DNA of 64,000 nt from a virus. Taxonomy: Duplodnaviria; Heunggongvirae; Uroviricota; Caudoviricetes. Positions 14,430 to 60,634 of this stretch are shown here, piece by piece (within the stretch, counting starts at the first letter, position 1; every line of letters begins with the position of its first letter). The translations under genes and the position numbers were made by a program. Where the stretch lies: IMG/VR virus record IMGVR_UViG_3300032103_000073; one strand, given 5' to 3'. The notes beneath the pieces are model-generated. The model saw nothing but the letters and a program-made list of their open reading frames with translations. It searched no databases and was not told the origin of the DNA.

Positions 14430-14647
14430 TAGACAATAAACTAATCAAAGTCCCTGTTAAAGTAAGAAACTGGTGGGACTTGGAAAATCGTTTAATTGAA
14501 ATCAACCAACTGAGAGCATGGCTTGACGAAATTACAGATTGGCAACCGGATATGTATGAGCTGCGGTTTCACGGCATGGGACGCTATTGTAATGCATGGT
14601 TTGCAAACGAAGAACATGCCATGCTTTGTGCGTTAAAGTATTCATAA
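14375..14647 (+). CDS. MF-x-LRWS-motif family small protein
   Basis: C-terminus ..HAMLCALKYS. Confidence 0.55.
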   Translation: MVVRRQGRCYDVFAEVCMIDNKLIKVPVKVRNWWDLENRLIEINQLRAWLDEITDWQPDMYELRFHGMGRYCNAWFANEEHAMLCALKYS

Positions 14648-14895
14648 TGTTTATTCATACATATACACAAAAGAACTACGATGCACAAGAGCCGGAAATA
14701 GCAAGATGGTATGTGGCAGCATTTACTACTCCGAAAAACTATTATGATATTGCCAAGTGGTGCTACAATACATTCGGAGAACCTGGATTTATTCACAATA
14801 CGCAAAGAACTAGGTGGGCCGATGATATTCATTATGGTGAAATATATTTTAGTAATGAAGAAGACCTTTTGATGTTTATATTGAGGTGGTCGTGA
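14646..14895 (+). CDS. MF-x-LRWS-motif family small protein
   Basis: C-terminus ..DLLMFILRWS; WCYNTFGEPG motif. Confidence 0.6.
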
Positions 14896-15272
14896 AGTTT
14901 TATCAGGCACCTTGGATAACAGAAAAAACACAAAGACAAATGGCACGTTGGGAAATACACAAACGATTTGGTATAAAGCAAGCCTTATGGTGGCAGTTTA
15001 TGCCCGGCACTATCATAGAAGTAAAATGGCCTAGAGGTTGGGCTGTGCTGGATGAAGACCCAGACGGCGGCCAGACTGCCGTGGAATCCTCAGACCCAAA
15101 CGACCATTATAGACCTTGGCTGGAACAGAATGTCGGCAAGCAGGGCTGGGATTGGGATTGGCGTGTTGGGCAAGTCACATTATATGATGATCACCAAAGT
15201 GATACTTTGCTAATTAAAATTAGACACAAATATCGAAATACTGCTATAATAGCTAAACTAAAATGGTCATAG
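14892..15272 (+). CDS. MF-x-LRWS-motif family small protein
   Basis: C-terminus ..AIIAKLKWS. Confidence 0.55.
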   Translation: MKFYQAPWITEKTQRQMARWEIHKRFGIKQALWWQFMPGTIIEVKWPRGWAVLDEDPDGGQTAVESSDPNDHYRPWLEQNVGKQGWDWDWRVGQVTLYDDHQSDTLLIKIRHKYRNTAIIAKLKWS

Positions 15273-15274
15273 CT

Positions 15275-15574
15275 ATGAATATACGTGAGTTTATCAATAA
15301 AACACAAGAAGAACACGATCGTAGGTATCGAAATCAGTCTGCTGCTGAAGTTTTAATGGGCTGGGTTCACCGAGAGATTAAAGACTGGGGATCGGTGTTC
15401 GCAGAGGGAGGATATTATAGTGTCGTCCCTGCAAGCATTTCGCAATGGCAAGAACTGCACGAATGGTGTAATCAAACTTTTGGTCGAGAACACTATGCAT
15501 GGTCGGGCAATAACTTTTGGTTCGAAACTCCCGAAGACGCTACTATGTTTGCCTTACGTTGGGGGTCGCTATGA
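15275..15574 (+). CDS. MF-x-LRWS-motif family small protein
   Basis: C-terminus ..DATMFALRWGSL; WCNQTFG motif. Confidence 0.6.
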   Translation: MNIREFINKTQEEHDRRYRNQSAAEVLMGWVHREIKDWGSVFAEGGYYSVVPASISQWQELHEWCNQTFGREHYAWSGNNFWFETPEDATMFALRWGSL

Positions 15575-15810
15575 AACCAGAATATGATGAATACTGGTAC
15601 GAGCACAATGTCTTTTATTTTAAGATAGCAACGTGGAGTCGCCGATTTTGTTTTATCCCTCGCAAGTGTTGGTTATCTCAGTCGTGGATGTGGCTGCGCC
15701 CTGCTATGCGAGGCGTTAGGATTATTAAAGGCCCAGGATCCGATGTTGTTGAAATATACTGGGTCAATGAAAACGAGTATTTATTTCATAAGTTAAGGTA
15801 CGGATACTAA
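15573..15810 (+). CDS. MF-x-LRWS-motif family small protein
   Basis: C-terminus ..EYLFHKLRYGY. Confidence 0.5.
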
Positions 15811-16049
15811 TGGAATACTTTTGGAGTGATGGCGGCAATAATAGACCTTACTTTAGATATAGGGTTAAGGTAGCCAAATGCACTGAAGAAATGTATAAAT
15901 GGTGCGAAGCATTTGACGACGAAGGAGCGTACTTTCGTCGTTTTCATGTTGAGTGGAAAACCGTACATGCTGGTAAAGAATACGAAGTTGTTCAGTTTGA
16001 ATGGGATAAGGCTGCGCTAATGTTTAAGCTAACTTGGGGCGGCGAATGA
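15810..16049 (+). CDS. MF-x-LRWS-motif family small protein
   Basis: C-terminus ..AALMFKLTWGGE. Confidence 0.55.
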   Translation: MEYFWSDGGNNRPYFRYRVKVAKCTEEMYKWCEAFDDEGAYFRRFHVEWKTVHAGKEYEVVQFEWDKAALMFKLTWGGE

Positions 16050-16456
16050 TGCAGTTTATCAAAGTCATTAAAGAACGATATCAAGCGTGGCAAGATCAAC
16101 GTTTCCTAAAGAAACACTGCTGTAATAATTGGGAACAATATCTCCGTCAAACAGATCCTGACGTATTTTATCCTGCTACAAGAATCCGAGATTTTTATCA
16201 CGGCTACCCGTATGTTTATTGTTTTGAAAATCGCAGTCATCAAATATATCAGTGGGACTTGGGATTTGACGGTTCTGCCGAAATAGTTGATTGGGCAAAA
16301 TTCTACTGCGAAAGTAAAGTTAGGTTTGATGGTTTTCGCTGTGTCAAAGACAGCCAAGGAGATTGGTGTACAAACGAATTGGGCGGCGGCGACTATTATT
16401 TTGCCGCTTTTAAAAATGAACTCGATATGTTTAATTTTATATTGAGGTGGGCCTAA
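16034..16456 (+). CDS. MF-x-LRWS-motif family small protein
   Basis: C-terminus ..LDMFNFILRWA. Confidence 0.55.
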   Translation: MGRRMMQFIKVIKERYQAWQDQRFLKKHCCNNWEQYLRQTDPDVFYPATRIRDFYHGYPYVYCFENRSHQIYQWDLGFDGSAEIVDWAKFYCESKVRFDGFRCVKDSQGDWCTNELGGGDYYFAAFKNELDMFNFILRWA

Positions 16457-16701
16457 TGGCTCAAAAAACATTCATCGAAACTAACGGCTTAAAACTTATA
16501 AGCGATGAGCGCGACATTATGGTTCCTTCTCGACTCTTTGACGATGTAGTTGCATGGTGCAATATAAATCATATTGATGTCACTGTGCCGCAAGGTACTT
16601 ATAGTCATAGCACTGCTGCTAGCATATTTAAGGTACATCTTTGGCGTGTAAAAGATCAAGAACAGCGAATGTTGTTTGCACTACGTTGGGATTTGTTTTG
16701 A
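16447..16701 (+). CDS. MF-x-LRWS-motif family small protein
   Basis: C-terminus ..QRMLFALRWDLF. Confidence 0.55.
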   Translation: MGLMAQKTFIETNGLKLISDERDIMVPSRLFDDVVAWCNINHIDVTVPQGTYSHSTAASIFKVHLWRVKDQEQRMLFALRWDLF

Positions 16702-16985
16702 GTTATAACGGCATAGCAAAATTTAGACCAACAGGATTAAAGCTAGTGAAAATTTCACAAGTAATAGAAAACGGTGCAGACTGCTATCCTTGGCGTGAAG
16801 TATTTGTTTGGTTTCCCTGGGTCACTACTGTTTCGGGAAAGCGTATTTGGTGGGAGCGAGTATTTAAACGTAGAGTTTGGGTAGTATGGGGAACGGGATT
16901 TCATACGGAGCCCGAAGTGCAGTACGCAACTTTATTTGAACTGTTAGCTTACAAAGACGAAGATTATTTTAATATGGAAAAATAA
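16641..16985 (+). CDS. array member (divergent C-terminus)
   Basis: ..ATLFELLAYKDEDYFNMEK. Confidence 0.45.
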   Translation: MACKRSRTANVVCTTLGFVLSYNGIAKFRPTGLKLVKISQVIENGADCYPWREVFVWFPWVTTVSGKRIWWERVFKRRVWVVWGTGFHTEPEVQYATLFELLAYKDEDYFNMEK

Positions 16986-17290
16986 TGGCAGCACTAGTAA
17001 ACGAAGATTGGATAAGAGCACGTAGCTTACTTGATAAGGGCTGGGTGCATCATTTTATACCACTTAGTAGTTTGATTAGCACACGAGTAGGATGGTTAGT
17101 AGACACGTATGGACCGCCTGCTAACGTTAACCGTCCTATGTACATGGGCTTGGATTTTGACAACTGCTCCTGGATGTTTGTTAAAATGGAAGATGCTTTT
17201 AAAAAAACTTTAGACTTTAAACACGATTGGATGTTATTGTTTGAATCGGAAGAAATGCTGATGATGTATAAATTGAGATTTGGGGAATAA
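16985..17290 (+). CDS. MF-x-LRWS-motif family small protein
   Basis: C-terminus ..EMLMMYKLRFGE. Confidence 0.55.
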   Translation: MAALVNEDWIRARSLLDKGWVHHFIPLSSLISTRVGWLVDTYGPPANVNRPMYMGLDFDNCSWMFVKMEDAFKKTLDFKHDWMLLFESEEMLMMYKLRFGE

Positions 17291-17587
17291 ATGGATATTG
17301 TAATGGCAGGTCGCCGTGTGGGCAAAAGCATTATGTCTCAAATGTGGCGAGAAATAAATGAAATGACAGACAAATTATACAGCGAACTGACCAGTGCAGA
17401 AGTTGATGGCTGCATGTGGTATACTATTAAATGCACCGAGCCTGTTGCAGCATGGATTAGGCAACAGCCAGGTGAACACACTCAATGGGATAATCTTATC
17501 GATAACAAATGGTATGTGCATTTTGATCAATTTGATGTGCATGAGGAATTTTACTTGATGTTAAAATTGCGGTGGGGTGCGCAATGA
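17291..17587 (+). CDS. MF-x-LRWS-motif family small protein
   Basis: C-terminus ..FYLMLKLRWGAQ. Confidence 0.55.
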   Translation: MDIVMAGRRVGKSIMSQMWREINEMTDKLYSELTSAEVDGCMWYTIKCTEPVAAWIRQQPGEHTQWDNLIDNKWYVHFDQFDVHEEFYLMLKLRWGAQ

Positions 17588-17853
17588 ATAAAGCGTTAAA
17601 AGAATACGAAGATATACTTGCAGAAGAGATTCGCAAGGAAATTGATGCTGAAATATTGTTTAGTATGTATAAGACGTTTGGCTGGCATCCCGTTGTGGAT
17701 TGTCGAAATCTCAGTTTTAATCATGCCTTACTAAAACAAGTAGAAGAATGGCTTACTACAATGCCTCGTGGCAAGTATCATATTAAAAGTCATACCGACT
17801 ATATCTTCCAATTACAGGAAGATGCTATGATGTTTAAGCTAAAGTGGTCATAA
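17572..17853 (+). CDS. MF-x-LRWS-motif family small protein
   Basis: C-terminus ..DAMMFKLKWS. Confidence 0.6.
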   Translation: MGCAMNKALKEYEDILAEEIRKEIDAEILFSMYKTFGWHPVVDCRNLSFNHALLKQVEEWLTTMPRGKYHIKSHTDYIFQLQEDAMMFKLKWS

Positions 17854-34090: not shown

Positions 34091-34288
34091 ATGCCGCAGT
34101 ATAGAAACATTGTTGTCCGGGTCCCGCGTGGCAATGCAGGCTGGCAATGGGGTCGCAATCAATGGCAAGAGTGGTGTGCATTAAATTGCCGGGGCGATTA
34201 TCAAGTGGTTGCATATAACAATCGTGAAATTACAGGCGGCTTCGATTTAGAGTCGGATGCAATGATGTTTATGTTGAGATGGTCATGA
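34091..34288 (+). CDS. MF-x-LRWS-motif family small protein
   Basis: C-terminus ..DAMMFMLRWS; start of array 2. Confidence 0.6.
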   Translation: MPQYRNIVVRVPRGNAGWQWGRNQWQEWCALNCRGDYQVVAYNNREITGGFDLESDAMMFMLRWS

Positions 34289-34740
34289 ATTATAATTCTC
34301 TATCGGATAAAGAACTATTAAACTATTTAGATCTATACAACGATGATCCTTTGGTTCGTCGCTTGTTAAAGATATTAGAAGAAGGAAGTATTGTACAAGA
34401 GCTGGTCGATGCAGGCATGGATCCTACTGACAGGACCTTTGAACATGATTGGCAGAATTTGAGTCCTGGTGATTACATCGAGCAACTTCGTAGAGACATG
34501 GAATACCATATCGAAGAACGTGACGAGATTGAACAAGAAAAAGAACACCTTGAGCGTGAAGTGACCCGTTTGTCTACTATGAGTCTTGTTAAATTTATCG
34601 CTGATGTTAGCGAGAAATTGGATGTTGCAAAATCAGAGATGCATCGTGCTCAACGTATTGCAGACAACGAAAAGAAGCTACGACAAGAATCTGAACAGAA
34701 ATTTGAGTTCTGGGAAAAACTAAATCACGGCATTAAATGA
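34285..34740 (+). CDS. hypothetical coiled-coil protein
   Basis: ATGA-coupled. Confidence 0.5.
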   Translation: MNYNSLSDKELLNYLDLYNDDPLVRRLLKILEEGSIVQELVDAGMDPTDRTFEHDWQNLSPGDYIEQLRRDMEYHIEERDEIEQEKEHLEREVTRLSTMSLVKFIADVSEKLDVAKSEMHRAQRIADNEKKLRQESEQKFEFWEKLNHGIK

Positions 34741-34940
34741 CAATCACAGACCTGCACGTACACAATGACGATAGGTATCCTTACAAGTATCGTTTAGATG
34801 TTCACATAGGTAACTTGAATCGTTATGAAGATGTACGGGACTGGATCGACCAACAAGGGATACCGGCCGTTATCGGACCGGGGTTTGGTTATTTTCGAAC
34901 CAAAGAAGATGCCTTGTTAGTAGCTTTACGATGGTCCTAA
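34737..34940 (+). CDS. MF-x-LRWS-motif family small protein
   Basis: C-terminus ..DALLVALRWS. Confidence 0.6.
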   Translation: MTITDLHVHNDDRYPYKYRLDVHIGNLNRYEDVRDWIDQQGIPAVIGPGFGYFRTKEDALLVALRWS

Positions 34941-34947
34941 CCAAATA

Positions 34948-34976
34948 TTGACACAAAATAATCATAGTGCTATAAT
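34948..34976 (+). promoter_or_regulatory. conserved early promoter
   Basis: TTGACA-N17-TATAAT. Confidence 0.7.
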
Positions 34977-34981
34977 AAGCT

Positions 34982-35230
34982 ATGATGAAGCTGGAAACTA
35001 CAACGTCAACATGGCACGGTGCAAAGTATACGTGCATCCGTCCTCGTCTTTCCAGCTGGAGTGTTAGTGCCAATCAAGCTACATGGACTGCTATTTCACA
35101 GTGGTGCTATGACTCGTTTGGCGAGCCTGGAGACCTGTTTGATTCTACTTGTGCTCGATGGTATATTAGCAATGGCTATTTGTTCCGACAGCCCGAAGAT
35201 GCAATGATGTTTATGTTGAGGTGGTCATGA
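34982..35230 (+). CDS. MF-x-LRWS-motif family small protein
   Basis: C-terminus ..DAMMFMLRWS; WCYDSFGEPG motif. Confidence 0.6.
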   Translation: MMKLETTTSTWHGAKYTCIRPRLSSWSVSANQATWTAISQWCYDSFGEPGDLFDSTCARWYISNGYLFRQPEDAMMFMLRWS

Positions 35231-35496
35231 GTATTACTAAACCCGAATGCTATTTAGAGCCCGAGTTTTTAAACAAACTTTGGTGCAATTATGTTGAGAT
35301 TAATCACCTTGGCAAAGGCAAGTTTTATTACCTGGAGACGGAGTATTGTAGGGTAAGCCGCCGTGGGTATCTATCACAACAATTTGAATTGTGGTTGTGG
35401 AAAGAAGGTGCAAGTGTTCGACAAATCAACGGCAAGTGTTATTTAGAATTTATCGATGCAGAAGATGCAATGATGTTCAGATTGAGGTTTAGTTGA
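35227..35496 (+). CDS. MF-x-LRWS-motif family small protein
   Basis: C-terminus ..DAMMFRLRFS. Confidence 0.6.
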   Translation: MSITKPECYLEPEFLNKLWCNYVEINHLGKGKFYYLETEYCRVSRRGYLSQQFELWLWKEGASVRQINGKCYLEFIDAEDAMMFRLRFS

Positions 35497-35497
35497 T

Positions 35498-35761
35498 ATG
35501 TTTGAGTTTGCATCAATGACTACAAAGTACGAAAATTTCACTGGAAAGAAGTGGAATTACAGTGGCAACAATGACACTAACTACCTAAGGAAGAACTTTC
35601 CGATGGTAAGTCTCGAAGGCAATAAACAACTGCTAGACGAAATGCATTTAGTACGAGACTGGTGTCAAGAACAGTTTGGAGACTATTGGATCTACGATTG
35701 GAATGACTTTTACTTTAAGAATAAAGATGATGCAGTTTTGTTTGCGTTGAGGTGGCTATGA
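35498..35761 (+). CDS. MF-x-LRWS-motif family small protein
   Basis: C-terminus ..DAVLFALRWL. Confidence 0.6.
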   Translation: MFEFASMTTKYENFTGKKWNYSGNNDTNYLRKNFPMVSLEGNKQLLDEMHLVRDWCQEQFGDYWIYDWNDFYFKNKDDAVLFALRWL

Positions 35762-36033
35762 ACTTTGAGTTGCAAGAAGGATATAACAAGCGAGTTGAGT
35801 TTAGTCCGGCTGTTGTATACCGCATTATGTCCACTTGGACTGAAGTTAAAGTCACTAGAGCAATGGCCGAACAACTGGTATCAGTACCTGTAAAATATCC
35901 AGCATCAAAGGGATACCCTCGTATCAGAAAATGGGTCGACGATAACATCGAAGGCCGCTGGGCAAGTCATATTCATTTGTTTTATTTTGAAGAACCAACA
36001 GATGCGTTCCTTTTTAGATTGAGGTTTGGTTGA
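35752..36033 (+). CDS. MF-x-LRWS-motif family small protein
   Basis: C-terminus ..DAFLFRLRFG. Confidence 0.6.
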   Translation: MAMNFELQEGYNKRVEFSPAVVYRIMSTWTEVKVTRAMAEQLVSVPVKYPASKGYPRIRKWVDDNIEGRWASHIHLFYFEEPTDAFLFRLRFG

Positions 36034-36293
36034 TGGCAATAACTTATACAATGTCCGAAAAATGGCCTACTATAAAGTTCCCGAAATTACATAAGGTTGT
36101 TTATGATCAGCGATCAGATGAACAAGTATTAGCCGGATATCAACGAAGCTATAAGGATCATTTAGTAGATACATGGCTCGAAACAAACTGTAAGCATCCT
36201 TACTATCACAGTCCTGGGTATCAACGCGAAAAGTATATTCAATTTGAATGCGACGAAGAAGCATTTATGTTTGCACTACAGTGGAGCAACTAA
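36030..36293 (+). CDS. MF-x-LRWS-motif family small protein
   Basis: C-terminus ..EAFMFALQWSN. Confidence 0.6.
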   Translation: MMAITYTMSEKWPTIKFPKLHKVVYDQRSDEQVLAGYQRSYKDHLVDTWLETNCKHPYYHSPGYQREKYIQFECDEEAFMFALQWSN

Positions 36294-36517
36294 TGTTTTT
36301 CCATTGGTTTAAGTATAAAGTTCCAGTTGAAAGACATTCGAGTGAGATAATCATTAAAATGACATCAGAAGGCATCGTACCTTTAGCGAGAACAAATTTC
36401 TGGGACTATCTTAAACGAGAGTTTGGTGTCAAGCAATACTTTAACTGGCGCAACTGTACTAACTATATGGTGTTCAACAATGAAGAACACTACCTAATGT
36501 TTTTGTTAAAATTATGA
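36293..36517 (+). CDS. MF-x-LRWS-motif family small protein
   Basis: C-terminus ..HYLMFLLKL. Confidence 0.5.
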   Translation: MFFHWFKYKVPVERHSSEIIIKMTSEGIVPLARTNFWDYLKREFGVKQYFNWRNCTNYMVFNNEEHYLMFLLKL

Positions 36518-36819
36518 AACGAGATGATCTAATTAATATGATTGATAGCCTGTCACGAGGCATAGCAATACATCGACATCACGAAAAACGAGCCACCATG
36601 GCAAAAGATTCATTCAAGTTCAGCCGTAAATGGTATCAAGCACATTTCGATGTCGAGCAATATTTTGAAGTAGATGCATGGTGCGAAGAACAGTTCGGTC
36701 CACATCCTCGTCAACCCGATGCATGGAGCCGTTGGTGGCACAAGTTCGAGGACAGCATCTTGTTCCGTGACCAAGATGATTACATGATGTTTGTTTTACG
36801 ATGGGGCAAGCATGATTAA
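36514..36819 (+). CDS. MF-x-LRWS-motif family small protein
   Basis: C-terminus ..DYMMFVLRWGKHD; WCEEQFGPHP motif. Confidence 0.6.
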   Translation: MKRDDLINMIDSLSRGIAIHRHHEKRATMAKDSFKFSRKWYQAHFDVEQYFEVDAWCEEQFGPHPRQPDAWSRWWHKFEDSILFRDQDDYMMFVLRWGKHD

Positions 36820-37003
36820 AGTAAGTAAGAACCCGTTAGAAAGAAACAGCTATATTATTAGCAAAGGTCTCGATTATAAAACCGAAGACTGGTTAGAACT
36901 AAAAGAATGGCTCGAGCAACAAGACCACTTTTATCTCAACGGCGGAGTGCTGCATTTTAAAAGCGACGAAGTCAGTATGATGTTTGCATTAAAATACCTA
37001 TGA
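36812..37003 (+). CDS. MF-x-LRWS-motif family small protein
   Basis: C-terminus ..VSMMFALKYL. Confidence 0.55.
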   Translation: MIKVSKNPLERNSYIISKGLDYKTEDWLELKEWLEQQDHFYLNGGVLHFKSDEVSMMFALKYL

Positions 37004-37617
37004 TTAAACTACTTGGAAAACTCCCTTTAAATCCTGTTATCGCTCTTAGTGGCGGTGTGGATAGTATGGCTGTGGCTGATTTTGTTAGTCGTAGCAGAAG
37101 TGTGCAATGTGCATTTTTCCATCATGGCACCGGGGTTAGTGATATTGCAGCCCAAGTTGTCAAGGACTATTGCCTCAAACGAGGTTGGCATTTGTTTATG
37201 GGTCATATCGTCAATGAACGACCTGAGGACATTAGCCCCGAAGAACACTGGCGTAATGAACGTTATGCGTTCTTAGATAACCTACAGCGTGATGTGATTA
37301 CAGGTCATCATCTTGACGACAGTGTAGAAACTTACCTATGGAGCACCTTGCACGGCACTGCTAAGGTTATCCCGTATCAACGCAATCGTGTAATTCGCCC
37401 GTTCTCTTTGGCAAAGAAAGAGGACCTAGAAGCATGGGCTGAACGAAACAACGTGCCTTGGGTTGAAGATTACACTAACGGTGATACTAAGTATATGCGA
37501 AACTATGTGCGACACAATATTGTTCCGCATGCTCTAGCAGTGAATCCTGGCTTGCACAAAGTGGTAGCACGTAAAGTTGAAGAACAATATCACAAAACAC
37601 TTGACACAAATTATTAA
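37000..37617 (+). CDS. tilS: tRNA(Ile)-lysidine synthetase-like PP-loop domain (TilS N-terminal catalytic domain)
   Basis: SGGVDS PP-loop; TGHHLDDSVETYLW and VIRPF...WVEDYTNGD..Y.RN motifs match the TilS core; 205 aa, catalytic domain only. Confidence 0.75.
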   Translation: MIKLLGKLPLNPVIALSGGVDSMAVADFVSRSRSVQCAFFHHGTGVSDIAAQVVKDYCLKRGWHLFMGHIVNERPEDISPEEHWRNERYAFLDNLQRDVITGHHLDDSVETYLWSTLHGTAKVIPYQRNRVIRPFSLAKKEDLEAWAERNNVPWVEDYTNGDTKYMRNYVRHNIVPHALAVNPGLHKVVARKVEEQYHKTLDTNY

Positions 37618-37630
37618 ATACTGCTATAAT
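37601..37630 (+). promoter_or_regulatory. conserved promoter driving the tRNA pair
   Basis: TTGACA-N18-TATAAT overlapping the tilS stop. Confidence 0.65.
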
Positions 37631-37650
37631 AGATACAATAAATAAAACAC

Positions 37651-37728
37651 TGCTCCTATAGCACAATTGGTTAGTGCAATCGACTCATAATCGATAGGTT
37701 ACTGGTTCGAGTCCAGTTGGGAGCACCA
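37651..37728 (+). tRNA. tRNA-Ile2 (anticodon CAT, lysidine type) or Met
   Basis: cloverleaf; anticodon arm ..TCGACTCATAATCGAT.. as in E. coli tRNA-Ile2; encoded CCA; adjacent to tilS. Confidence 0.8.
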
Positions 37729-37733
37729 AGATT

Positions 37734-37809
37734 TCTGGCGTTCGTTCAATGGATAGGACAAGATTCTTCTAAAGTCTTTATGGGGGTTCGATTCCCTCAC
37801 GCCGGACCA
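37734..37809 (+). tRNA. tRNA-Arg (TCT)
   Basis: cloverleaf; anticodon loop CTTCTAA. Confidence 0.75.
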
Positions 37810-37810
37810 A

Positions 37811-37850
37811 ACAAAAACAAAAACCCGCATAATGCGGGTTTTTGTTTTAT
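37811..37850. terminator. bidirectional rho-independent terminator
   Basis: A-run, cccgcataatgcggg stem, T-run. Confidence 0.8.
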
Positions 37851-38725
37851 CCATTATAGTTAAACGTCGAACGAACTAAAACACGCTCTCTTAATATATT
37901 AGGGTCGTCTTGATCTCGTTTGTGTATGGTCAAGATTTGATCCATCAGAATAATATCACCGGGCTCCCATGGGTGCGAATAGATAAACTTATCCTGAAGA
38001 CAGTGTTCTTTTAAATCTTCTAACAAGCATGGATCTTGCGGAAATGAGCACTTGTTATGAAAGTGAAAATATAATCCTTTTTTTCCTCTAAAGCTATCGT
38101 TGATCAACGGCATTTGATAAGGAACTTTATTTTTTGCCATAGCGTTATATTGATCTGCTGGTAATCCTTCTGCCCATATTTCGGGAGCATACTCAAAATT
38201 GCCCACTATGCCCTGGCAACGCTCTTTGAGGTCTGCAGGCATAGCTTCGTAAGCTAGTGTAGTATCCATGAAACTAGTGCTGGTCCCCTTAATGCCTTCG
38301 CTTACACCCTGCAAGGCAACACCGTTAGCCCTACCCGGTCCGTTGTAGTTGCTATGCCAGTCTAGTGTGCCGGTTCCGAATATACCACTGCGTTTGCCAT
38401 TTTTTATTTGTCCGGTTACTCGCTGCACAGGATACAGATCATCTATGCCTTCATAATTAAATGGATCGATAACTTCTTTGGCTTTGTTAAACAAGACATT
38501 ACCGTGAATGTCCCACGTGCATTGGTCCCAGTTAGCAACATTGCCTTGACCCATGCGATAAATTAGTTTCATATAAGGAACGGTTAGCCTGGGTTGATTT
38601 TTAAATACAACAACTAAATCGCGCAGCAGTGACTCTTTAATATCTACATAATCTTGTTCTGTTAGTTCTCGTATGTCGCAGTCGGAAATTTCTACGGCAC
38701 AATTGTTTAATGGTGTAATCTTCAT
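37847..38725 (-). CDS. TauD/TfdA-like Fe(II)/alpha-ketoglutarate dioxygenase (putative)
   Basis: WEPGDIILMDQILTIHKR C-terminal motif; 292 aa. Confidence 0.45.
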   Translation of the reverse strand: MKITPLNNCAVEISDCDIRELTEQDYVDIKESLLRDLVVVFKNQPRLTVPYMKLIYRMGQGNVANWDQCTWDIHGNVLFNKAKEVIDPFNYEGIDDLYPVQRVTGQIKNGKRSGIFGTGTLDWHSNYNGPGRANGVALQGVSEGIKGTSTSFMDTTLAYEAMPADLKERCQGIVGNFEYAPEIWAEGLPADQYNAMAKNKVPYQMPLINDSFRGKKGLYFHFHNKCSFPQDPCLLEDLKEHCLQDKFIYSHPWEPGDIILMDQILTIHKRDQDDPNILRERVLVRSTFNYNG

Positions 38726-38779
38726 ATGTTTATTTAATCAATAGAGCCTGTAAGCTAGAAAAGTCTAATAAATATTTGC

Positions 38780-39568
38780 ATGTCATATTCTAAAATCATA
38801 ACAAACAAACTAGCTTCTAATACAGAATTTTTACCTTACATTCAATTGGCAGCAACTGCACTGGTTGCAGCATTTGTTATATTTTATCCCCAGTCTCATG
38901 CAGGATGGCTAACAGCAGTTCTTATGTATGCGGCGATTGGCTGTTTTGGCATTAGCATTGGTTATCATAGACTACTAACGCATAAGAGTTTTAAGACTAC
39001 AAAATTTTGGGAATATTTTTGTGCCTTGTGGGGAACATTGGCATTTACTGGCAGTGCGATAGGTTGGGTAGGCATGCACAGAGACCATCACAAATACAGC
39101 GACAAGCCGGGTGACCCGCATAGTCCAGTAGTTCGCAGCTGGCGCATGCTAGTAGCAGCTTACGATTATGCCCCGGATAAATGGAAGATTCGCCATTTAA
39201 TCTTTGATAAATTTCACGTCTTTATTCACACTTGGTATTTTGGTTTATTGTTAGCATGGACAGCTTTTTGGTTTTCACTTGGTGGAATAGCATTAGCTAT
39301 GTATGTGGTTATTATCCCTGCGGTAATTAGCGTTTGGGTTAGCACTACTAGCAACTATATGAACCACAAATGGGGATATAGGAATTTTGAAACAACAGAT
39401 AACAGCCGCAACCTTTGGTTTAATGCAGTCTTTACATTTGGAGAAGGATGGCATAACAACCATCACGCTCGCCCGGGTAATTATGACTTTGGATCTGGTA
39501 CTAGTGGCAAGTGGTGGGAATTTGATCCCGGTGCTAGAATTATAGAATTGATACGATCTTGCAAATAA
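38780..39568 (+). CDS. membrane fatty-acid desaturase/hydroxylase family protein
   Basis: three His boxes HRLLTH, HRDHH and HNNHH; four TM helices. Confidence 0.7.
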   Translation: MSYSKIITNKLASNTEFLPYIQLAATALVAAFVIFYPQSHAGWLTAVLMYAAIGCFGISIGYHRLLTHKSFKTTKFWEYFCALWGTLAFTGSAIGWVGMHRDHHKYSDKPGDPHSPVVRSWRMLVAAYDYAPDKWKIRHLIFDKFHVFIHTWYFGLLLAWTAFWFSLGGIALAMYVVIIPAVISVWVSTTSNYMNHKWGYRNFETTDNSRNLWFNAVFTFGEGWHNNHHARPGNYDFGSGTSGKWWEFDPGARIIELIRSCK

Positions 39569-40077
39569 TTATAAGTTGCACTTGAATCTAGTAAAATTTG
39601 CAAAAAAGAAAAATCGCTGTCGCTATTATTTACAAACATCCCTTTTAATGAGCGGTCTATAATAAAAGGTAGTGGCTGAAGATTATGTTTCTCTGCTTTA
39701 CTTTTATCGTTATTGGCACTAAAATAATTAACGTCAATAGTTCCCGGCGTTAGTGGGATATATAACTCAACTGAAGTTTTGACATCATTGACATACAAAT
39801 CGATAAATCCTTTGCGCTTTTTCGGGTGCATATTATAAAGCATTATTCTTGAAATATTTAAATTGCAATTACTTATGAAATTAAAAATCTCGTAAGTGTG
39901 TAATCGATCATATTGGATGAATTTATTTTTAATATTTTTTGAATGGGACCCCCAGTCGAATTGACAAGAAGATCGGTCTTTTATGACCTCTATATCCGAT
40001 TGCAGCAATTGATAAAAATCAACCGAAGCTTTATGGTCTTGAAAAAAAGTTATTGACATTATTCTAAAAAATAACAA
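39481..40077 (-). CDS. hypothetical protein
   Basis: minus-strand ORF in the island. Confidence 0.4.
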   Translation of the reverse strand: MLFFRIMSITFFQDHKASVDFYQLLQSDIEVIKDRSSCQFDWGSHSKNIKNKFIQYDRLHTYEIFNFISNCNLNISRIMLYNMHPKKRKGFIDLYVNDVKTSVELYIPLTPGTIDVNYFSANNDKSKAEKHNLQPLPFIIDRSLKGMFVNNSDSDFSFLQILLDSSATYNYLQDRINSIILAPGSNSHHLPLVPDPKS

Positions 40078-41240
40078 TGGCTAGTAGATCGAACTAGGCC
40101 GTATTTTATACCCTTCATGCTTGTCCATTCGGGTCCTGCAATTTGTTGCAATTTTTTAATCCCGTTTGTATATATTCTCCTCTGCTCGCTATGTTCGTCT
40201 TTTAAAAACCAAGCGTCACGAGGACTCCACATTAACAAAAAATCATCTTTACCGCTACTATAAGTGTCAGTATTCCAATCTGGATATACAATACGATGTA
40301 ATCCGTTGTTTGTTAGATAAATGAATGTATTGTTATATTTGGCTTTTCCTAACACATTATATTCCGGCGTTAGCCAACCAGCCTTGACATCGTATTCTGG
40401 CACATTTTTTAAATAGTTCATGACTAAATGGCCCTGCTTACATAGTATGTCACATGCATCTGGACTCCAGTAAAAAAACTCATCATTTTCCCAACTTCTG
40501 TTTAGTTCCTGAGTTAAAGGGTTAACGGCATTATCTACAATGTCTATGAAGTTAATTGCATATTTGTTGTTTATTAAATTAACACGCGGTTTATCAATAC
40601 CCCAAACAAAGCAAACAGATTTTCCTTTCGAGTACAAGTCTAAATAATCTTTTTCTTGTTCCCTGATATATCGTCTTGCTTGTTGATTTGGACTAAAAAC
40701 AGCATTTGATTTATACAAGAAATCAAATTTATTGTTATCTTTTGAAAACAAGTCTTTTTGATAGTCTAAATGATCTACTAACCGGAATTTGGTCAATGGG
40801 CTATGTTCTAGCAATTGTTTTGCTACCGGCATTGCAACTCTACTAACTTCACTATTTAAATAAGTGTCCCAACTTCCATCACCGCCGAAATTATGAAAGG
40901 TTGCAATTTCATCTACAAACAGACCTTGATCAACAAATGCTCGTAGCATTGTATAACTGTCTGCTCCACCGGACCACCAAAGCACTATGTAATCATAACG
41001 TTCTCTAATTTGCCTTGCTCGTTTTTGATAAAGAGTTCTTAAGTCCTCGGTTGGTTCGATTTTCCAATTATATGATGCAAATTCATAGTCATTGAAATTC
41101 CAATGTATCTTGTCTACATTATTTTTTTTAGCTGCTTCTATAGCAGATACTTTGCTATAGAATTTCAAATCATTGACTTGATAAAAGCCAAATTTATCTT
41201 TAGACAAATAAGGCTTTGAAATAAGCGAATCGTAGGTCAT
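40059..41240 (-). CDS. PP-loop (SGGxDS) ATP-pyrophosphatase-like protein
   Basis: IVLWWSGGADSYTML motif; 393 aa. Confidence 0.5.
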   Translation of the reverse strand: MTYDSLISKPYLSKDKFGFYQVNDLKFYSKVSAIEAAKKNNVDKIHWNFNDYEFASYNWKIEPTEDLRTLYQKRARQIRERYDYIVLWWSGGADSYTMLRAFVDQGLFVDEIATFHNFGGDGSWDTYLNSEVSRVAMPVAKQLLEHSPLTKFRLVDHLDYQKDLFSKDNNKFDFLYKSNAVFSPNQQARRYIREQEKDYLDLYSKGKSVCFVWGIDKPRVNLINNKYAINFIDIVDNAVNPLTQELNRSWENDEFFYWSPDACDILCKQGHLVMNYLKNVPEYDVKAGWLTPEYNVLGKAKYNNTFIYLTNNGLHRIVYPDWNTDTYSSGKDDFLLMWSPRDAWFLKDEHSEQRRIYTNGIKKLQQIAGPEWTSMKGIKYGLVRSTSHCYFLE

Positions 41241-41269
41241 AAGTAAGTGTATAATTAACTTTATTTATT

Positions 41270-42196
41270 ATGAACAAAACATTTTTAACACTACTGGGAT
41301 CTCTAATGATTTCCACTTCTCTTTTTGCAAAAGAAAAGATTTCGATTTATTTTCCATATGCAGCCAGCGCAAGTCCGACACCTAGCGTCATACGTATGGT
41401 AGATGAAGCAAATAACTTGCAAGAAAAATATAATTTCCAACTGGTATTTAAACCAGGTGGCAATCAGGGTATTGCAGTGAATTCGATGGATCGAGAACCT
41501 AACAACTCGTTGTCTGTTATTGCGCCTGCTTATGTAGAAAATTACAAAACTAACATGTTTGACAAAAACAATCACGTACCGATATGGTCGATGGGTAATG
41601 CTTGTTGGTTGGTTATTTCTAATTTAGGAGACGAAAAAACAGGATTATCAAGTTTAAAACACGAAAAAGAAATAAATGTCGGCGGGGTCGGCTTTGGTAA
41701 TGCTACACACCTGACTGCACTTGCGTTGGGAGAGAAATATAACATAAAAATAAATTATATTGTTTTCAAATCAAACACAGATGCTCTGATGAATATGGTC
41801 GGAAAAAACGGTATTAACATGGTTATAGATAAAGCAGATAACTATATTAATTTTAAAGAAAAAGGTAATCTTCGTGCATTAGCAGTGAGCTGCAATAAAA
41901 AAATAGGGAAATTGAATTTCGTTAAAACATTAGAAGAACAAAAAATAACAGCGCCTTCAGTTTTTAATATTATTATTGCAAACAAAAATATGCCGATAGA
42001 CTTGCAGCAAGACATCAAGTCTATTTTACAAAAAAGTGCAGAAAACATTGGACAAGATTTTTTCTTAGAACATAGTGGTTTTAGACCTAGTCAATTTGAT
42101 AAAATATCAGAAGACATGTTTTACAACAAATCGTTGCTTTTGTTAGAAGAATTGCTTGCAAAGCATAAATATGCTATAGAACTAAGTAAAAAATAA
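41270..42196 (+). CDS. secreted periplasmic solute-binding-like protein
   Basis: signal peptide plus about 290-aa mature domain. Confidence 0.35.
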   Translation: MNKTFLTLLGSLMISTSLFAKEKISIYFPYAASASPTPSVIRMVDEANNLQEKYNFQLVFKPGGNQGIAVNSMDREPNNSLSVIAPAYVENYKTNMFDKNNHVPIWSMGNACWLVISNLGDEKTGLSSLKHEKEINVGGVGFGNATHLTALALGEKYNIKINYIVFKSNTDALMNMVGKNGINMVIDKADNYINFKEKGNLRALAVSCNKKIGKLNFVKTLEEQKITAPSVFNIIIANKNMPIDLQQDIKSILQKSAENIGQDFFLEHSGFRPSQFDKISEDMFYNKSLLLLEELLAKHKYAIELSKK

Positions 42197-45225: not shown

Positions 45226-45855
45226 ATGAACTATATAATTTACAAGACTACAAATCTGCTAAACGGTATGTACTACATTGGTTCTCATCAAACCAATGAC
45301 TTAAATGACGGATACTTAGGTTCGGGTAAACATTTAAAAAGAGCCATTACTAAGTACGGCAGAGAAAATTTTAAATTTGAAATTCTTTACTTTCTTCCCT
45401 CAAAAGAGGAAATGTTTAAAGTAGAACGAGAAATCGTAAATGAATCTTTTGTGCAAGATCCGCTAACGTATAATTTAAAAATCGGTGGTAGCGGAGGGAA
45501 TCCTGGTATTATCGGAGCTTTTTCTGGAAGAAGGCATACCGAAGAAACTAGAGAAAAAATGAGAGTTTCGAGGTCGAAACAAGCGCCCATGTCAGAAACA
45601 AGTAGACAAAAACTTTCAGAAAATAACTGGTCTAAAAGAGATCCCGGCGCGCATAGAGAACACATGCGTAAGATAGCATCTATGCCACGGTCGGAAGAAC
45701 ATAACAAAAAAGTCGCCGAAGCAAACATAGGCAAAACAATAGTTAATAATGGTATTATTGCTAAAAGAATAGATAAGAAAGATTTGAGCTACTATGAAGA
45801 TAGTGTTGGAAAAGAGGCGCAATGCCTCGTAAGAAATAATATGCCCTTAAGATAA
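45226..45855 (+). CDS. GIY-YIG homing endonuclease (Seg-like)
   Basis: IIYKTTNLLNGMYYIGSH...KRAITKYG GIY-YIG module plus basic C-terminal DNA-binding region. Confidence 0.75.
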   Translation: MNYIIYKTTNLLNGMYYIGSHQTNDLNDGYLGSGKHLKRAITKYGRENFKFEILYFLPSKEEMFKVEREIVNESFVQDPLTYNLKIGGSGGNPGIIGAFSGRRHTEETREKMRVSRSKQAPMSETSRQKLSENNWSKRDPGAHREHMRKIASMPRSEEHNKKVAEANIGKTIVNNGIIAKRIDKKDLSYYEDSVGKEAQCLVRNNMPLR

Positions 45856-48139: not shown

Positions 48140-48346
48140 CAAGTTAAGAAATTAACTGTTTTGATAGATGTTGTTGGGAGCGATCCCCCACAACAGAGAT
48201 GTAAGGTCCTCAACTGCGAGGCGTTAGCAACATTTATCATCTTGTTCTTTAAAAATTTGCAGTGTTGTTTAGGCTGATTGACGGCAATCGAAAAGCAGTC
48301 TGAGTCTTGTCCCCGGCGCACCGCTTTGCCGAGCGTACCGCAGGGA
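48140..48346 (+). other. structured leader A (candidate small RNA), homologous to leader B
   Basis: shared 5' box AGAT(A/G)(C/T)AAGTTAAG(A/C)AATTAACT and a GGGA(A)GCGATC hairpin. Confidence 0.4.
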
Positions 48347-48420
48347 GTCTCTATAGTGTAAGGGTAGCACGCCAGCTTGTAAGAGTTGGAGGATTGGGTT
48401 CGAATCCCAATAGAGTTTAA
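48347..48420 (+). tRNA. tRNA-Gln-scaffold paralog with an 8-nt anticodon loop (TTGTAAGA); no CCA
   Basis: D-arm and T-arm nearly identical to the tRNA-Gln at 45012; stem CCAGC/GTTGG encloses 8 nt. Confidence 0.4.
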
Positions 48421-49752: not shown

Positions 49753-49827
49753 GGGCTGCGGTGATCCCTTGCAAGGATCATGACTAGAAGGGTTCAACTC
49801 CCTCGGCCTCCACCAAACAATGCCCGG
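49753..49827 (+). tRNA. tRNA-Ala (TGC)-like
   Basis: G3:U70; loop CTTGCAA; atypical D region and 8-nt variable loop; T-loop TTCAACT. Confidence 0.5.
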
Positions 49828-49833
49828 TTAATT

Positions 49834-49907
49834 AAATGGTATAATACACCCCTGATAAGGGTGAATCACTGGATCGTAACCAGTACTGGGTACCAATGTT
49901 AGTTAGA
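49834..49907 (+). tRNA. tRNA-Ile (GAT)
   Basis: loop CTGATAA. Confidence 0.7.
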
Positions 49908-49948: not shown

Positions 49949-50542
49949 ATGTTTTGTAAATTTTGCAACAAAGAATGTAAGAATAAGAATAGTCTAGTAA
50001 ACCATGAGCGTTTATGTCCAGCGAACCCTGACAGAAAATATGTGTCACACACGCTAGGTAAAAACGGTCATGTCGCTTGGAATAAAGGACTGTCCAAAGA
50101 AACTTCTAGATCTTTGGCACAGTTAAGTGAAACACATAAGCGAAACGGTCACGGTGGCTGGTCTAAGAAAGCTAGTTCCAACGGAGGCAAAGCAGGTGGC
50201 GGATATCGTGAAAATGCAGGAAGAAGTAAGAAATTCAAAGTAGTCGATTCTTTCGACAAAACGGTGTGCTTGCAAAGCACATACGAACTTAGATGCAGTC
50301 GACTATTGAATGAGTTGGGCATTAAGTGGATAAGACCATCAGCATTAAAGTATGATAGTAAAAATTATTTTGCTGATTTTTATTTACCGGAGTATGATTT
50401 GTATCTAGATCCAAAGAATAATTATAAAGCAAAATTGGATACTGACAAAATCAATAAAGTAAAAGAACAAAATAATGTAAGAGTTGTGATTCTCACTGAG
50501 GATCAGTTGACTCAAGATTATATAAAAAGCCTTTGTAGTTAA
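49949..50542 (+). CDS. zinc-finger protein, possible homing-endonuclease-like
   Basis: N-terminal CKFC...HERLC zinc finger; basic middle region; inserted between tRNAs. Confidence 0.35.
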   Translation: MFCKFCNKECKNKNSLVNHERLCPANPDRKYVSHTLGKNGHVAWNKGLSKETSRSLAQLSETHKRNGHGGWSKKASSNGGKAGGGYRENAGRSKKFKVVDSFDKTVCLQSTYELRCSRLLNELGIKWIRPSALKYDSKNYFADFYLPEYDLYLDPKNNYKAKLDTDKINKVKEQNNVRVVILTEDQLTQDYIKSLCS

Positions 50543-50602
50543 ATGGTATAACGGTCGCTTGATAAGCGATTATTACAAGTTCAATTCTTGTCGAAGGCAC
50601 CA
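50529..50602 (+). tRNA. tRNA-Ile (GAT)-like, second copy
   Basis: loop TTGATAA; overlaps the preceding ORF's 3' end. Confidence 0.55.
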
Positions 50603-52227: not shown

Positions 52228-52303
52228 GGTGATGTAGCTCAGTTGGTAGAGTACCTCCTTCATACGGAGAGTGTCGGCGGTTCAAGTCCGTCCATCACCA
52301 CCA
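52228..52303 (+). tRNA. tRNA-Met (CAT), elongator-like
   Basis: loop TTCATAC. Confidence 0.7.
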
Positions 52304-54303: not shown

Positions 54304-54380
54304 AACTAATAATGCCCCGGTGGTGGAATTGGTAGACACGCTACGTTGAGGTCGTAGCATTTGCAGGTTCGAGTCCTGTC
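54304..54380 (+). tRNA. class-I tRNA with Leu anticodon GAG (G37)
   Basis: 5' half resembles E. coli tRNA-Leu (TGGTGGAATTGGTAGACAC) but the variable loop is only 4-5 nt. Confidence 0.55.
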
Positions 54381-54432
54381 CAGGGTACCATTGAATGTAA
54401 AGTTAAATACATATGTAAACAAAGGAGTAATC

Positions 54433-54993
54433 ATGTCTGTACTAGCACTCGACATTTCTGGAATCCCACGTCAGTGGATTTCCTTTGATGACGCTATCAC
54501 TTACCACGCCAAAGATGCAGTAGCATGGAGCATGGGAGAAGTAGTAGCGAAGTATCGCGGTGGCTTACAAAATGATGGATCTGAAAGTTACTTGGAAACC
54601 ACTAGCATTATTGCTATTAAGGGTCACGGATTTAATCCCCATAAGCACGGAACTGTGGCGTTGAGCAACCGAACATTGTTTGGTCGTGACCGCAACACTT
54701 GTGCCTACTGCGGGGGTCATTTCCCTAACTATCACCTGTTGAGTAGGGATCATATTGTTCCTAAATATCACGGCGGTGAAAATACTTGGATGAACTGTGT
54801 TACGGCTTGCAAGGAATGTAACAGCAAAAAAGGACATAAGACTTTGAAAGAAGCTCGTATGGAATTGCTCTACGTGCCATATGCACCTAACCACTTTGAA
54901 AATATGATTTTGCAAAACCGAAGCATCATGGCGGATCAGATGGAATATTTGATCCAAGGTGTGCCTAAGCACAGCAGGATCCTGCTTTCATAG
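54433..54993 (+). CDS. HNH endonuclease
   Basis: CAYCGGHF...DHIVPKYHGGENTWMNCVTACKECNSKK; SD GGAG before ATG 54433. Confidence 0.75.
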   Translation: MSVLALDISGIPRQWISFDDAITYHAKDAVAWSMGEVVAKYRGGLQNDGSESYLETTSIIAIKGHGFNPHKHGTVALSNRTLFGRDRNTCAYCGGHFPNYHLLSRDHIVPKYHGGENTWMNCVTACKECNSKKGHKTLKEARMELLYVPYAPNHFENMILQNRSIMADQMEYLIQGVPKHSRILLS

Positions 54994-57161: not shown

Positions 57162-57725
57162 ATGCCCTGGATACAAAATGTCAGCATGAGCGATGTCAAG
57201 CGCGGCTTGCATTTCGAGGCCGGCGAAAATAGCATGCTGATTCAGATTGTTGACCCAGCATATGAGTTTCCTGCACCGTTGAAGCAGTTTAAAGAAGTTC
57301 ATCAGTTTGAATTTCTCGATGTAGAAGCAACTGACTTGGAGTTTGCAGAGTTTGCCTGCACACAAGAGCAAGCAGACCGCTTGGTGGAACTGCTAACTCA
57401 TGCTATGGACAAACGCATGAACGTTCTCGTGCATTGCCATGCAGGTGTTTGCCGCAGTGGTGCAGTCTGCGAAGTAGGTGTTATGATGGGATTTAGCGAC
57501 ACAGAAGTGTTTCGCAGTCCTAACCTGCTGGTCAAGCACTTAATGATGAAGCGACTTGGATGGACCTATGATGCCGATGAAAAGCATAGCACAAACGGCT
57601 ATACTACTCCCAGCGGCATTATTGTTCCCAAGCAAGAATTAGATTGGACAAACGATAACGAAAAGGTGTTTACACTGGCTGATGCCCGGCGCAAGTATCG
57701 TTTTAACACCGGAGAAGATGTATGA
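57162..57725 (+). CDS. protein tyrosine/dual-specificity phosphatase
   Basis: CX5R P-loop VHCHAGVCRSG. Confidence 0.65.
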   Translation: MPWIQNVSMSDVKRGLHFEAGENSMLIQIVDPAYEFPAPLKQFKEVHQFEFLDVEATDLEFAEFACTQEQADRLVELLTHAMDKRMNVLVHCHAGVCRSGAVCEVGVMMGFSDTEVFRSPNLLVKHLMMKRLGWTYDADEKHSTNGYTTPSGIIVPKQELDWTNDNEKVFTLADARRKYRFNTGEDV

Positions 57726-60367: not shown

Positions 60368-60634
60368 ATGAACGAACAAATGCTGGAACTTTATAGACGG
60401 GCTCAAGTGCCGTATACTGCTATTGACCCGTCTAATAATATGCCTTATGAGACAACTACTTTTAGTGCGGAAAAGTTCGCCGAGTTGATTGTTCGGGAAT
60501 GTTTGAACCAATTACAAGAATTAACGCCACTGAAAATTTCCAATGAAGAACACCAGAAATTAGTTGATGCTACACATATAGCGGCAGTGAGTATCGGTGT
60601 TGCTAAGATTAAACATCATTTCGGAGTTGAATAA
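60368..60634 (+). CDS. FAELIVREC-family small protein
   Basis: KFAELIVRECLNQ...HHFGVE. Confidence 0.55.
   Translation: MNEQMLELYRRAQVPYTAIDPSNNMPYETTTFSAEKFAELIVRECLNQLQELTPLKISNEEHQKLVDATHIAAVSIGVAKIKHHFGVE

Follow-up and report, generated by a model that had tools for sequence, protein, structure and literature searches.

A TilS-like protein confined to the catalytic domain and an adjacent tRNA-Ile2-type gene in a jumbo phage: a putative module for AUA decoding

Through lysidine, cellular tRNA(Ile)-lysidine synthetase (TilS) turns a tRNA with the anticodon CAU from a substrate of methionyl-tRNA synthetase into a substrate of isoleucyl-tRNA synthetase (IleRS) that reads AUA (PMC11947777, PMC9976931). 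The current view is that efficient catalysis depends on the C-terminal domains of the enzyme, as does the distinction of tRNA-Ile2 from tRNA-Met, which have the same anticodon (PMC11947777, PMC12514573). In 2006 phage tRNAs with the anticodon CAU were identified as Ile tRNAs of the lysidine type (PMC1524935), and a passage in a review (PMC13191261) records lysidine at position 34 (k2C34) on a vibriophage-encoded tRNA(CAU), presumably introduced by the TilS of the host. Viral genes for the enzyme have also been described. In 2019 a putative TilS was reported for the Pseudomonas jumbo phages MIJ3 and PA5oct by authors who considered it not reported in phages and of unknown function, and who speculated about host viability; all three CAT tRNAs were listed there as Met, and the missing C-terminal domains were not remarked on (PMC6892783). 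In 2020 a putative TilS, found in 39 of 41 chloroviruses, was proposed to serve AUA decoding in these viruses, which infect eukaryotes and use AUA much more often than their host does; the substrate was treated as tRNA-Met (PMC7589089). Here we analyse a 64,000-nucleotide stretch of tailed-phage DNA (Caudoviricetes; IMG/VR record IMGVR_UViG_3300032103_000073), which we call the window, where the gene of a 205-amino-acid (aa) TilS-like protein is directly followed by a tRNA with the anticodon CAT (CAU in the RNA) and by a tRNA-Arg(UCU). Our analysis suggests that this minimal phage TilS probably modifies the adjacent phage tRNA-Ile2 for AUA decoding.

Profiles, structures and single residues agree on what the protein is. 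Its motifs are SGGVDS (residues 17-22), GHHLDDSVETYLW (102-114), IRPF (132-135) and WVEDYTNGD (154-162), and PF01171 is its sole Pfam domain (E = 1.5e-28). With TIGR02432, the equivalog model of the TilS N-terminal domain, it scores 111.8 bits, above the trusted cut-off of 93.6 (E = 3.6e-32), and the match spans profile positions 3-189 of 189, while of the full-length TilS model NF007942 positions 21-217 of 439 alone are matched, at 65.9 bits for a cut-off of 606. A sequence search of the whole PDB returned TilS only, from Aquifex aeolicus (1wy5), E. coli (1ni5) and G. kaustophilus (3a2k); the A. aeolicus enzyme is the best match (E = 2.5e-15), and the chains align to the phage protein over their residues ~17-225. 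The AlphaFold (AF2) model, made from an alignment of 31 family members, has a mean predicted local distance difference test score (pLDDT) of 94, and its top Foldseek matches are the TilS structures 1ni5, 2e21, 2e89 and 1wy5, with template-modelling (TM) scores of 0.80-0.83 and E ~1e-13. Finally, among 33 cellular TilS catalytic domains 28 columns reach an invariance of 85% or more, and we checked these in 44 phage sequences. In at least 85% of the latter 24 of the 28 are kept, among them R85, R88-Y89, H103, D107, E110-T111, R133-P134, D157, N160, R167-N168, R171 and SGGxDS, the last of which is invariant across the phage family. By these measures the open reading frame (ORF) is a TilS catalytic domain, and presumably an active one.

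Other members of the PP-loop superfamily were considered and rejected. The TtcA model gives 26.5 bits for a cut-off of 272. QueC has no match in NCBIfam or Pfam and reaches TM scores of 0.46-0.48 in Foldseek. An Fe-S thiolase of the TtcA/TtuA kind fails on its cysteines, since CxxC is absent from 31 family members and no Cys is invariant, and TtuA, at TM ~0.72-0.78, ranks below TilS as a fold. PHROGs has no family for the ORF. An earlier note on this DNA had read the ORF, from SGGVDS and further TilS motifs, as a TilS catalytic domain standing alone, and had proposed a PF01171 profile search and a comparison with TtcA and QueC; that reading holds, coordinates and motifs included, and both checks came out for TilS.

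The protein stops at the boundary of the N-terminal domain (NTD), where the linker to C-terminal domain 1 (CTD1) begins, and corresponds to roughly the first 45% of Type I TilS. Neither CTD1 nor CTD2 is present in the 205 aa according to Pfam, profile and PDB alignments, and cellular C-terminal domains used as queries found no TilS C-terminal region elsewhere in the 64-kb window: their sole match was the TilS ORF itself, and it came from a 738-aa fusion in which the catalytic domain is placed late. A split gene or a partner subunit encoded nearby was considered and rejected, given that the small ORFs upstream have no Pfam match, that there is no co-conserved neighbour and that the window holds no C-terminal domain; across the family, no ORF within 2.5 kb was found to be conserved together with TilS. 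The short length is a family trait and not a truncation. Among 1277 homologous clusters at 90% identity the best 120 are all 180-210 aa long, and an exhaustive profile search at E <= 1e-30 gave 400 clusters (50% identity), and nearly all of the best 150 have lengths of 160-240 aa; the longer members among these 150 include two with N-terminal extensions and a few with unmatched C-terminal tails of ~40-80 residues.

The family is carried by phage and metagenome contigs, including contigs of 300-430 kb and two uncultured phage genomes of 635-642 kb. The closest relative of the protein, 93% identical, lies on a 345,731-bp contig of the Joint Genome Institute (JGI) that is syntenic with the window, and the window is from a jumbo phage of ~345 kb, whose presumed early region holds an island of tRNA and translation genes; it has no close DNA match to a deposited phage. 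In a neighbour-joining tree, 92 of 100 bootstraps set the 44 short phage sequences apart as a monophyletic group from 33 cellular catalytic domains, and identity inside the phage clade falls as low as 37%. A pattern-seeded scan of 185,579 bacterial and archaeal species, one genome per species, yielded ordinary TilS only among the matches listed, at no more than 36% identity (41% over one short segment). The 55 complete cellular ORFs that we measured from these matches fall into Type II, at 277-332 aa, and Type I, at 420-507 aa, apart from the one fusion of 738 aa, and none of them is shorter than 277 aa. Without any C-terminal domain, the phage family of ~200 aa falls outside the Type I / Type II scheme.

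The second component of the locus is the tRNA. Its anticodon arm is ATCGA-CTCATAA-TCGAT, and ARAGORN labels it Met, a label that follows from the anticodon alone. We compared it with the bacterial Ile and Met identity sets of PMC9976931, which rest chiefly on work in E. coli. The Ile elements A73, C4-G69, C29-G41, A35, U36, A37 and A38 are present, while neither of the Met acceptor determinants U4-A69 and A5-U68 is, their places being taken by C4-G69 and C5-G68. Nor is it an initiator, since G1-C72 is paired and the stem AUCGA/UCGAU lacks the run of three G-C pairs at 29-31:39-41. Its identity to E. coli ileX (a comparison sequence that agrees with RefSeq) is 75%, as compared with 65% for the elongator metU and 47% for fMet. 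Among the blastn matches listed from 5,426 E. coli genomes every near-full-length one is a tRNA-Ile, and the closest tRNAs in deposited phages, 83-88% identical, are mostly annotated tRNA-Ile and in some cases tRNA-Met. The pair C5-G68 and the loop CUCAUAA occur together in all 12 distinct TilS-linked CAT tRNAs (from the window, its relatives and MIJ3), in the tRNA-Ile of T4 and in ileX, while C5-G68 is missing from the Met-like and initiator-like tRNAs that we compared. Judged by identity elements and by the annotations of others, this tRNA is of the Ile2 type. We predict that the adjacent enzyme acts on it and that the modification would make it the decoder of AUA.

The window also encodes a second CAT tRNA, which resembles elongator tRNA-Met and has A5-U68 and the loop UUCAUAC, and the same two features recur in the second CAT tRNA (12172-12246) of the related locus L114. 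This separate tRNA suggests that the phage keeps its Met and Ile2 tRNAs apart. Two copies of tRNA-Ile(GAU) are present as well, and together with the Ile2-type and the Met-like tRNA they would give the phage its own decoders for the whole AUN box. In MIJ3 a third CAT tRNA bears the C1xA72 mismatch of an initiator. We note separately that the Met-like CAT tRNAs of the window and of L114 have U32 and C38, where E. coli Met and all Ile2-type tRNAs read CUCAUAA, and that the one in the window is mismatched (C27xA43) at the top of its anticodon stem. The earlier note had likened the anticodon arm to that of the E. coli tRNA-Ile2 and had asked whether identity elements would separate it from elongator Met; the resemblance was borne out, and the elements, except for the 12:23 pair discussed below, are those of Ile2 and neither those of Met nor those of an initiator.

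The linkage of the two genes recurs in other phages. Our sample comprised 21 distinct short-TilS loci, less than 90% identical to one another, with tRNAs counted within 3 kb. Ten of the 21 have any tRNA in this range, and in all ten a CAT tRNA is included; it is the tRNA nearest to TilS in 8 of the 10, where CAT tRNAs make up 12% of all tRNAs, giving a binomial P of 1.5e-6, which is optimistic in that the loci are related. In seven loci the CAT tRNA follows TilS at a distance of 34-130 nt, in an eighth it precedes TilS by 15 nt, and in three (L017, L018 and L023) it is alone or one of two tRNAs near TilS. An Arg(TCT) tRNA accompanies it in L005, L007, L026, L027, L114 and MIJ3, and in relatives and in MIJ3 the company includes both Leu(UAA) and Arg(UCU).

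Some related phage contigs have features of their own. In L014 and L015 (906-1296) a permuted transfer-messenger RNA gene with the tag ANDDVYAEDLRLAA is found ~1.7 kb upstream of TilS. The TilS-linked CAT tRNA of L115 (6666-6753, the same as L116 914-1001) is 88 nt long, with a long variable region, and keeps C5-G68. L027 has an ORF with an RF-1 domain, similar to peptidyl-tRNA hydrolase, between the tRNAs that follow TilS (10831-11205), and in L113 TilS is followed directly by two RNA ligase genes and a kinase.

The layout of the locus (Table 1) suggests how enzyme and tRNA might be expressed. A sigma-70 promoter with 12 of 12 consensus matches and an extended -10 TG lies across the end of the TilS gene, such that the TAA stop codon (37615-37617) falls inside the promoter spacer. 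As the earlier note had it, this promoter overlaps the stop of the gene and stands before the tRNA, and the relatives add weight: its hexamers are invariant in the window and in L026, L027, L005 and L014 while the flanks diverge, and they are still unchanged in relatives whose TilS is merely 47% identical. The promoter would drive both tRNAs, with tRNA-Arg(UCU) co-transcribed with tRNA-Ile2. Beyond them stands a hairpin of 16 pairs with a G+C-rich core, between the tRNA unit and a convergent TauD-like gene, and it can terminate both. Upstream, the ATG of the TilS ORF shares bases with the TGA of the preceding ORF (ATGA), and the ORFs from 34982 to the start of TilS at 37000 are contiguous or overlapping. 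The nearest perfect promoter on that side, which begins at 34948, probably serves this whole run of small paralogous ORFs (34982-37003) together with the TilS gene, as a single early unit. No terminator is found between TilS and the tRNAs, so with the upstream promoter the enzyme and its presumed substrate would be made together. Perfect sites of the form TTGACA-N16-18-TATAAT, to which both of these promoters belong, number 18 in the window, from 6220 to 59799, all on the + strand, where 0.08 would be expected by chance; most open with TTGACACAAA(T/A)T, and many have TG or GTT before the -10 hexamer. This class looks like a phage-specific set of very strong early promoters for the sigma-70 of the host that punctuate the region of small ORFs and tRNAs.

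Table 1. Features of the window: the TilS-tRNA locus, its promoters and terminator, other decoders of the AUN box and further genes
Feature	Position	Strand	Basis
TilS-like PP-loop ATP pyrophosphatase, 205 aa	37000..37617	+	profile searches, PDB match, predicted fold
sigma-70 promoter across TilS stop	37601..37630	+	TTGACA, 18-nt spacer, TATAAT
tRNA-Ile2-type, anticodon CAU, encoded CCA end	37652..37728	+	ARAGORN and Rfam (RF00005, 73 bits)
tRNA-Arg(UCU), AGA decoder	37735..37809	+	ARAGORN and Rfam (49.3 bits)
bidirectional intrinsic terminator hairpin	37814..37848	.	core CCCGCA-TAA-TGCGGG, A and T runs on flanks
nearest upstream perfect sigma-70-type promoter, TTGACACAAA...TATAAT	34948..34976	+	pattern scan
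second CAT tRNA, elongator-Met-like (G1-C72, A5-U68, loop UUCAUAC)	52228..52303	+	ARAGORN, alignment
tRNA-Ile(GAU), AUU/AUC decoder	49822..49895 (second copy 50529-50602)	+	ARAGORN
homing-endonuclease and phosphatase/kinase/ligase genes	45226-45855, 54361-54993, 57162-57725, 60634-61179, 61497-62396	+	

How would such a locus serve the phage? We propose that host RNA polymerase would transcribe the enzyme gene and the tRNAs, presumably early in infection. By analogy with cellular TilS, the enzyme would adenylate C2 of C34 with ATP, and lysine would replace AMP to give lysidine, which would switch the tRNA from accepting Met and reading AUG to accepting Ile and reading AUA. AUA-rich phage genes could then be translated independently of the amount of host TilS, and the companion tRNA-Arg(UCU) would play the same role for AGA. 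From the sequence, then, we infer catalysis, lysine as amine donor, the adjacent tRNA as substrate, early timing and a fitness benefit. Codon usage is consistent with this proposal. In 131 crudely called genes of the window, whose overall G+C content is 41%, 24% of Ile codons are AUA (14.2 per 1000), 20% of Arg codons AGA (11.2 per 1000) and 22% of Leu codons UUA; the literature gives an AUA usage of 4.9 per 1000 for E. coli and 0.6 for B. cenocepacia (PMC12514573). An enzyme of its own would remove the dependence of the phage on host TilS. The earlier note had called the locus a self-contained module, which is right in that enzyme and tRNA are both encoded but goes too far, as IleRS and the machinery for t6A37 must still come from the host.

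A number of observations weigh against this proposal. We know of no precedent for lysidine synthesis by a TilS that consists of the NTD alone. Every TilS described so far has CTD1, some of them with CTD2 in addition (PMC11947777, PMC12514573); deletion of CTD2 from Type I TilS strongly cuts activity, and residues of CTD1 contribute to catalysis. In the catalytic domain itself, 4 of the 28 near-invariant columns are not kept by the phage family, namely L25V, Arg to His in the RGxG loop, one deleted Gly and A147; the loop after the ET motif is 2-8 residues shorter, and the exceptions cluster there. The change in RGxG and the shorter loop could affect the binding of lysine or of the tRNA. The D-stem of the window tRNA (GCAC/GTGC) has the pair A12-U23, unlike the Ile determinant U12-A23, which the TilS-linked CAT tRNAs of the relatives L027, L007 and L005 do have. 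About half of the distinct loci, PA5oct/MIJ3 included, have no tRNA within 3-4 kb of TilS, and the codon-bias argument is one-sided, as it covers the codons of the phage alone.

The absence of CTD1 and CTD2 also means that selection of the tRNA must rest on the anticodon arm, where the U32/C38 loop of the Met-like tRNAs of two related phages is a candidate anti-determinant, as a hypothesis. A first alternative is that the enzyme modifies C34 of the linked tRNA(CAU) with an amine other than lysine, or that it has a broader range which takes in, for example, the tRNA-Met of the host. The altered Arg and shortened adjoining loop speak for such a change, as does the loss of the very domains that enforce discrimination in cellular TilS, and the loop UUCAUAC of the phage Met-like tRNAs looks as though it had evolved to evade the enzyme. 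Other adducts at C34, ava2C and agmatidine, occur in nature (PMC11947777). However, the retention of most catalytic-domain columns and a TIGR02432 score above the trusted cut-off argue for the ordinary chemistry, and the loop argument comes from two related phages only. We consider this alternative unlikely. One can go further and imagine a third class of TilS: the catalytic domain alone, autonomous, co-evolving with tRNA-Ile2 and selecting by the loop only, such that phage Met tRNAs would escape through U32/C38 while the host tRNA-Met, which in E. coli reads CUCAUAA, would be mis-lysidinylated. If so, the enzyme would both enable AUA decoding and damage Met decoding in the host. We give this extension little credence.

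Alternatively, the NTD-only protein might need a partner for tRNA binding, either another phage protein or the TilS of the host through heterodimerisation of the NTDs. TilS dimerises through its N-terminal domain, cellular TilS crystallises in several chains (A-D of 2e21 and 2e89), and the distal domains matter strongly for catalysis by Type I TilS. But the family-wide search described above gave no co-conserved ORF within its 2.5-kb range and the window no TilS C-terminal domain, the ~200-aa length persists over the 400 clusters at 50% identity, and other wobble-modifying enzymes manage with the anticodon arm alone (PMC11947777). A partner therefore seems to us rather improbable, slightly more so than altered chemistry. 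The remaining two alternatives fare worse. That the CAT tRNA is an ordinary elongator tRNA-Met, adjacent to TilS by virtue of a gene at the edge of a tRNA array, is suggested by the ARAGORN label, by the Met annotation of some homologs in deposited phages, by the D-stem pair, which is not the U12-A23 determinant, and by the 32 tRNA calls in the window, among which some adjacency is expected; but the balance of acceptor determinants, the distinct Met-like tRNA, the tRNA-Ile annotation of the best E. coli matches listed, the near-solitary tRNAs that are still CAT in three loci and the linkage statistic, even for related loci, have already largely refuted it, and we regard it as very improbable. 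The idea that the protein is a functionless, decaying remnant of a captured bacterial tilS, to which its coverage of just the first part of Type I TilS might point, is effectively refuted by conservation (a uniform length over hundreds of diverged clusters, invariant catalytic motifs, a confident compact predicted fold, deeply divergent monophyly and a start codon coupled to the upstream ORF) and is scarcely credible. Modification of the adjacent tRNA-Ile2 by the phage TilS is thus the reading that we prefer.

The window holds further genes besides those of the locus. At least 13 small paralogous ORFs (65-101 aa) with a C-terminal motif of the form ~(E/D)DA(M/L)MF.LRW(S/G) occupy 12463-17853 and 34091-37003 on the + strand; a tandem array of eight of these lies immediately before TilS, and Pfam has no match for any of the family. 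At 48346-48419 (+) ARAGORN calls a tRNA with an anticodon loop of 8 nt (UUGUAAGA), the four bases GUAA as anticodon, the label Tyr|Leu and no encoded CCA, which could be a degenerate tRNA-Tyr, a tRNA resembling a frameshift suppressor, or a false call. As in T4, homing-endonuclease genes of the GIY-YIG and HNH kinds break up the tRNA arrays, and after the arrays come a DSP-phosphatase-like protein, an AAA_33 kinase similar to polynucleotide kinase (PNK) and an RNA ligase similar to RnlA of T4; the phosphatase-like protein, kinase and ligase are a probable tRNA-repair module. At 403-1641 (+) there is a 412-aa homolog of ClpX, 51-55% identical to clpX of the jumbo phages Sinorhizobium Phosso and Agrobacterium Atu_ph07; such homologs are common to many unrelated phages, and L027 has a gene of the ClpP family in the corresponding region. 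Right after the tRNA pair, at 37847-42196, follow a TauD-family dioxygenase (- strand), a fatty-acid desaturase and a TctC-family protein, a host-like metabolic block with a lower G+C content (34-39%) that is kept in L026 and partly in L027 and L114.

How does the locus compare with the systems already described? The gene itself is known. JGI automatic annotation already names many family members TilS, a putative phage TilS and the argument linking TilS to AUA bias were published in 2019 and 2020, and the advance is one of interpretation, concerning the architecture, the linkage and the assignment of the tRNA. In the searchable literature we found no description of a phage TilS family without any C-terminal domain, nor of a recurrent linkage of TilS and an Ile2-type tRNA behind a conserved promoter. 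The nearest described protein is that of MIJ3/PA5oct (Wroclawvirus; gp263 / EST35_0433), 203 aa long and annotated as tRNA(Ile)-lysidine synthetase, with 44% identity over 93% of the query and a place inside the short phage clade (L001). MIJ3 likewise has Ile2-like CAT tRNAs followed by Leu(UAA) and, nearby, Arg(UCU), but these two Ile2-like tRNAs are non-adjacent, ~10 kb upstream of TilS. The Ralstonia jumbo phage RsoM2USA, with 44 tRNAs, encodes a TilS homolog of 349 aa, ORF84 (PMC8504454), whose length fits Type II (NTD and CTD1); it was probably acquired separately.

Among cellular enzymes the closest counterpart is the Type II TilS of A. aeolicus (1wy5, 2e21 and 2e89; 317 aa), which superimposes at a TM score of 0.80-0.83 over the catalytic domain and shares with the phage protein the motifs SGGxDS, RY, HHLxD..ET, RP, ED.(S/T)N and RN..R. 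Type II TilS keeps CTD1, however, whereas the phage protein is without it and differs further by His in place of the Arg and by a shortened loop behind the ET motif. Given the current view of what the C-terminal domains do, a large and old phage family that lacks them, and whose genes often adjoin that of the presumed substrate tRNA, would be a natural minimal system in which to ask how much of the enzyme catalysis needs and where specificity originates.

On the side of the tRNA, E. coli ileX and ileY and the tRNA-Ile(CAU) of T4 have the same loop CUCAUAA, A73, C4-G69, C5-G68 and C29-G41 as the tRNA of the window, which differs from ileX and T4 in the 12:23 pair, flipped to A-U, and in that CCA is encoded. 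T4 also groups its tRNA-Ile(CAU) with tRNAs for Arg(UCU) and Leu(UAA), a trio for rare A-ending codons that stands beside TilS in relatives of the window as well. The phage would carry not only a rare-codon tRNA but also the enzyme that gives this tRNA its identity, and would be freed from a host enzyme that may become limiting after shut-off. The tRNAs of T4 and of E. coli prophages depend on the TilS of the host, while the phage of the window encodes the enzyme alongside.

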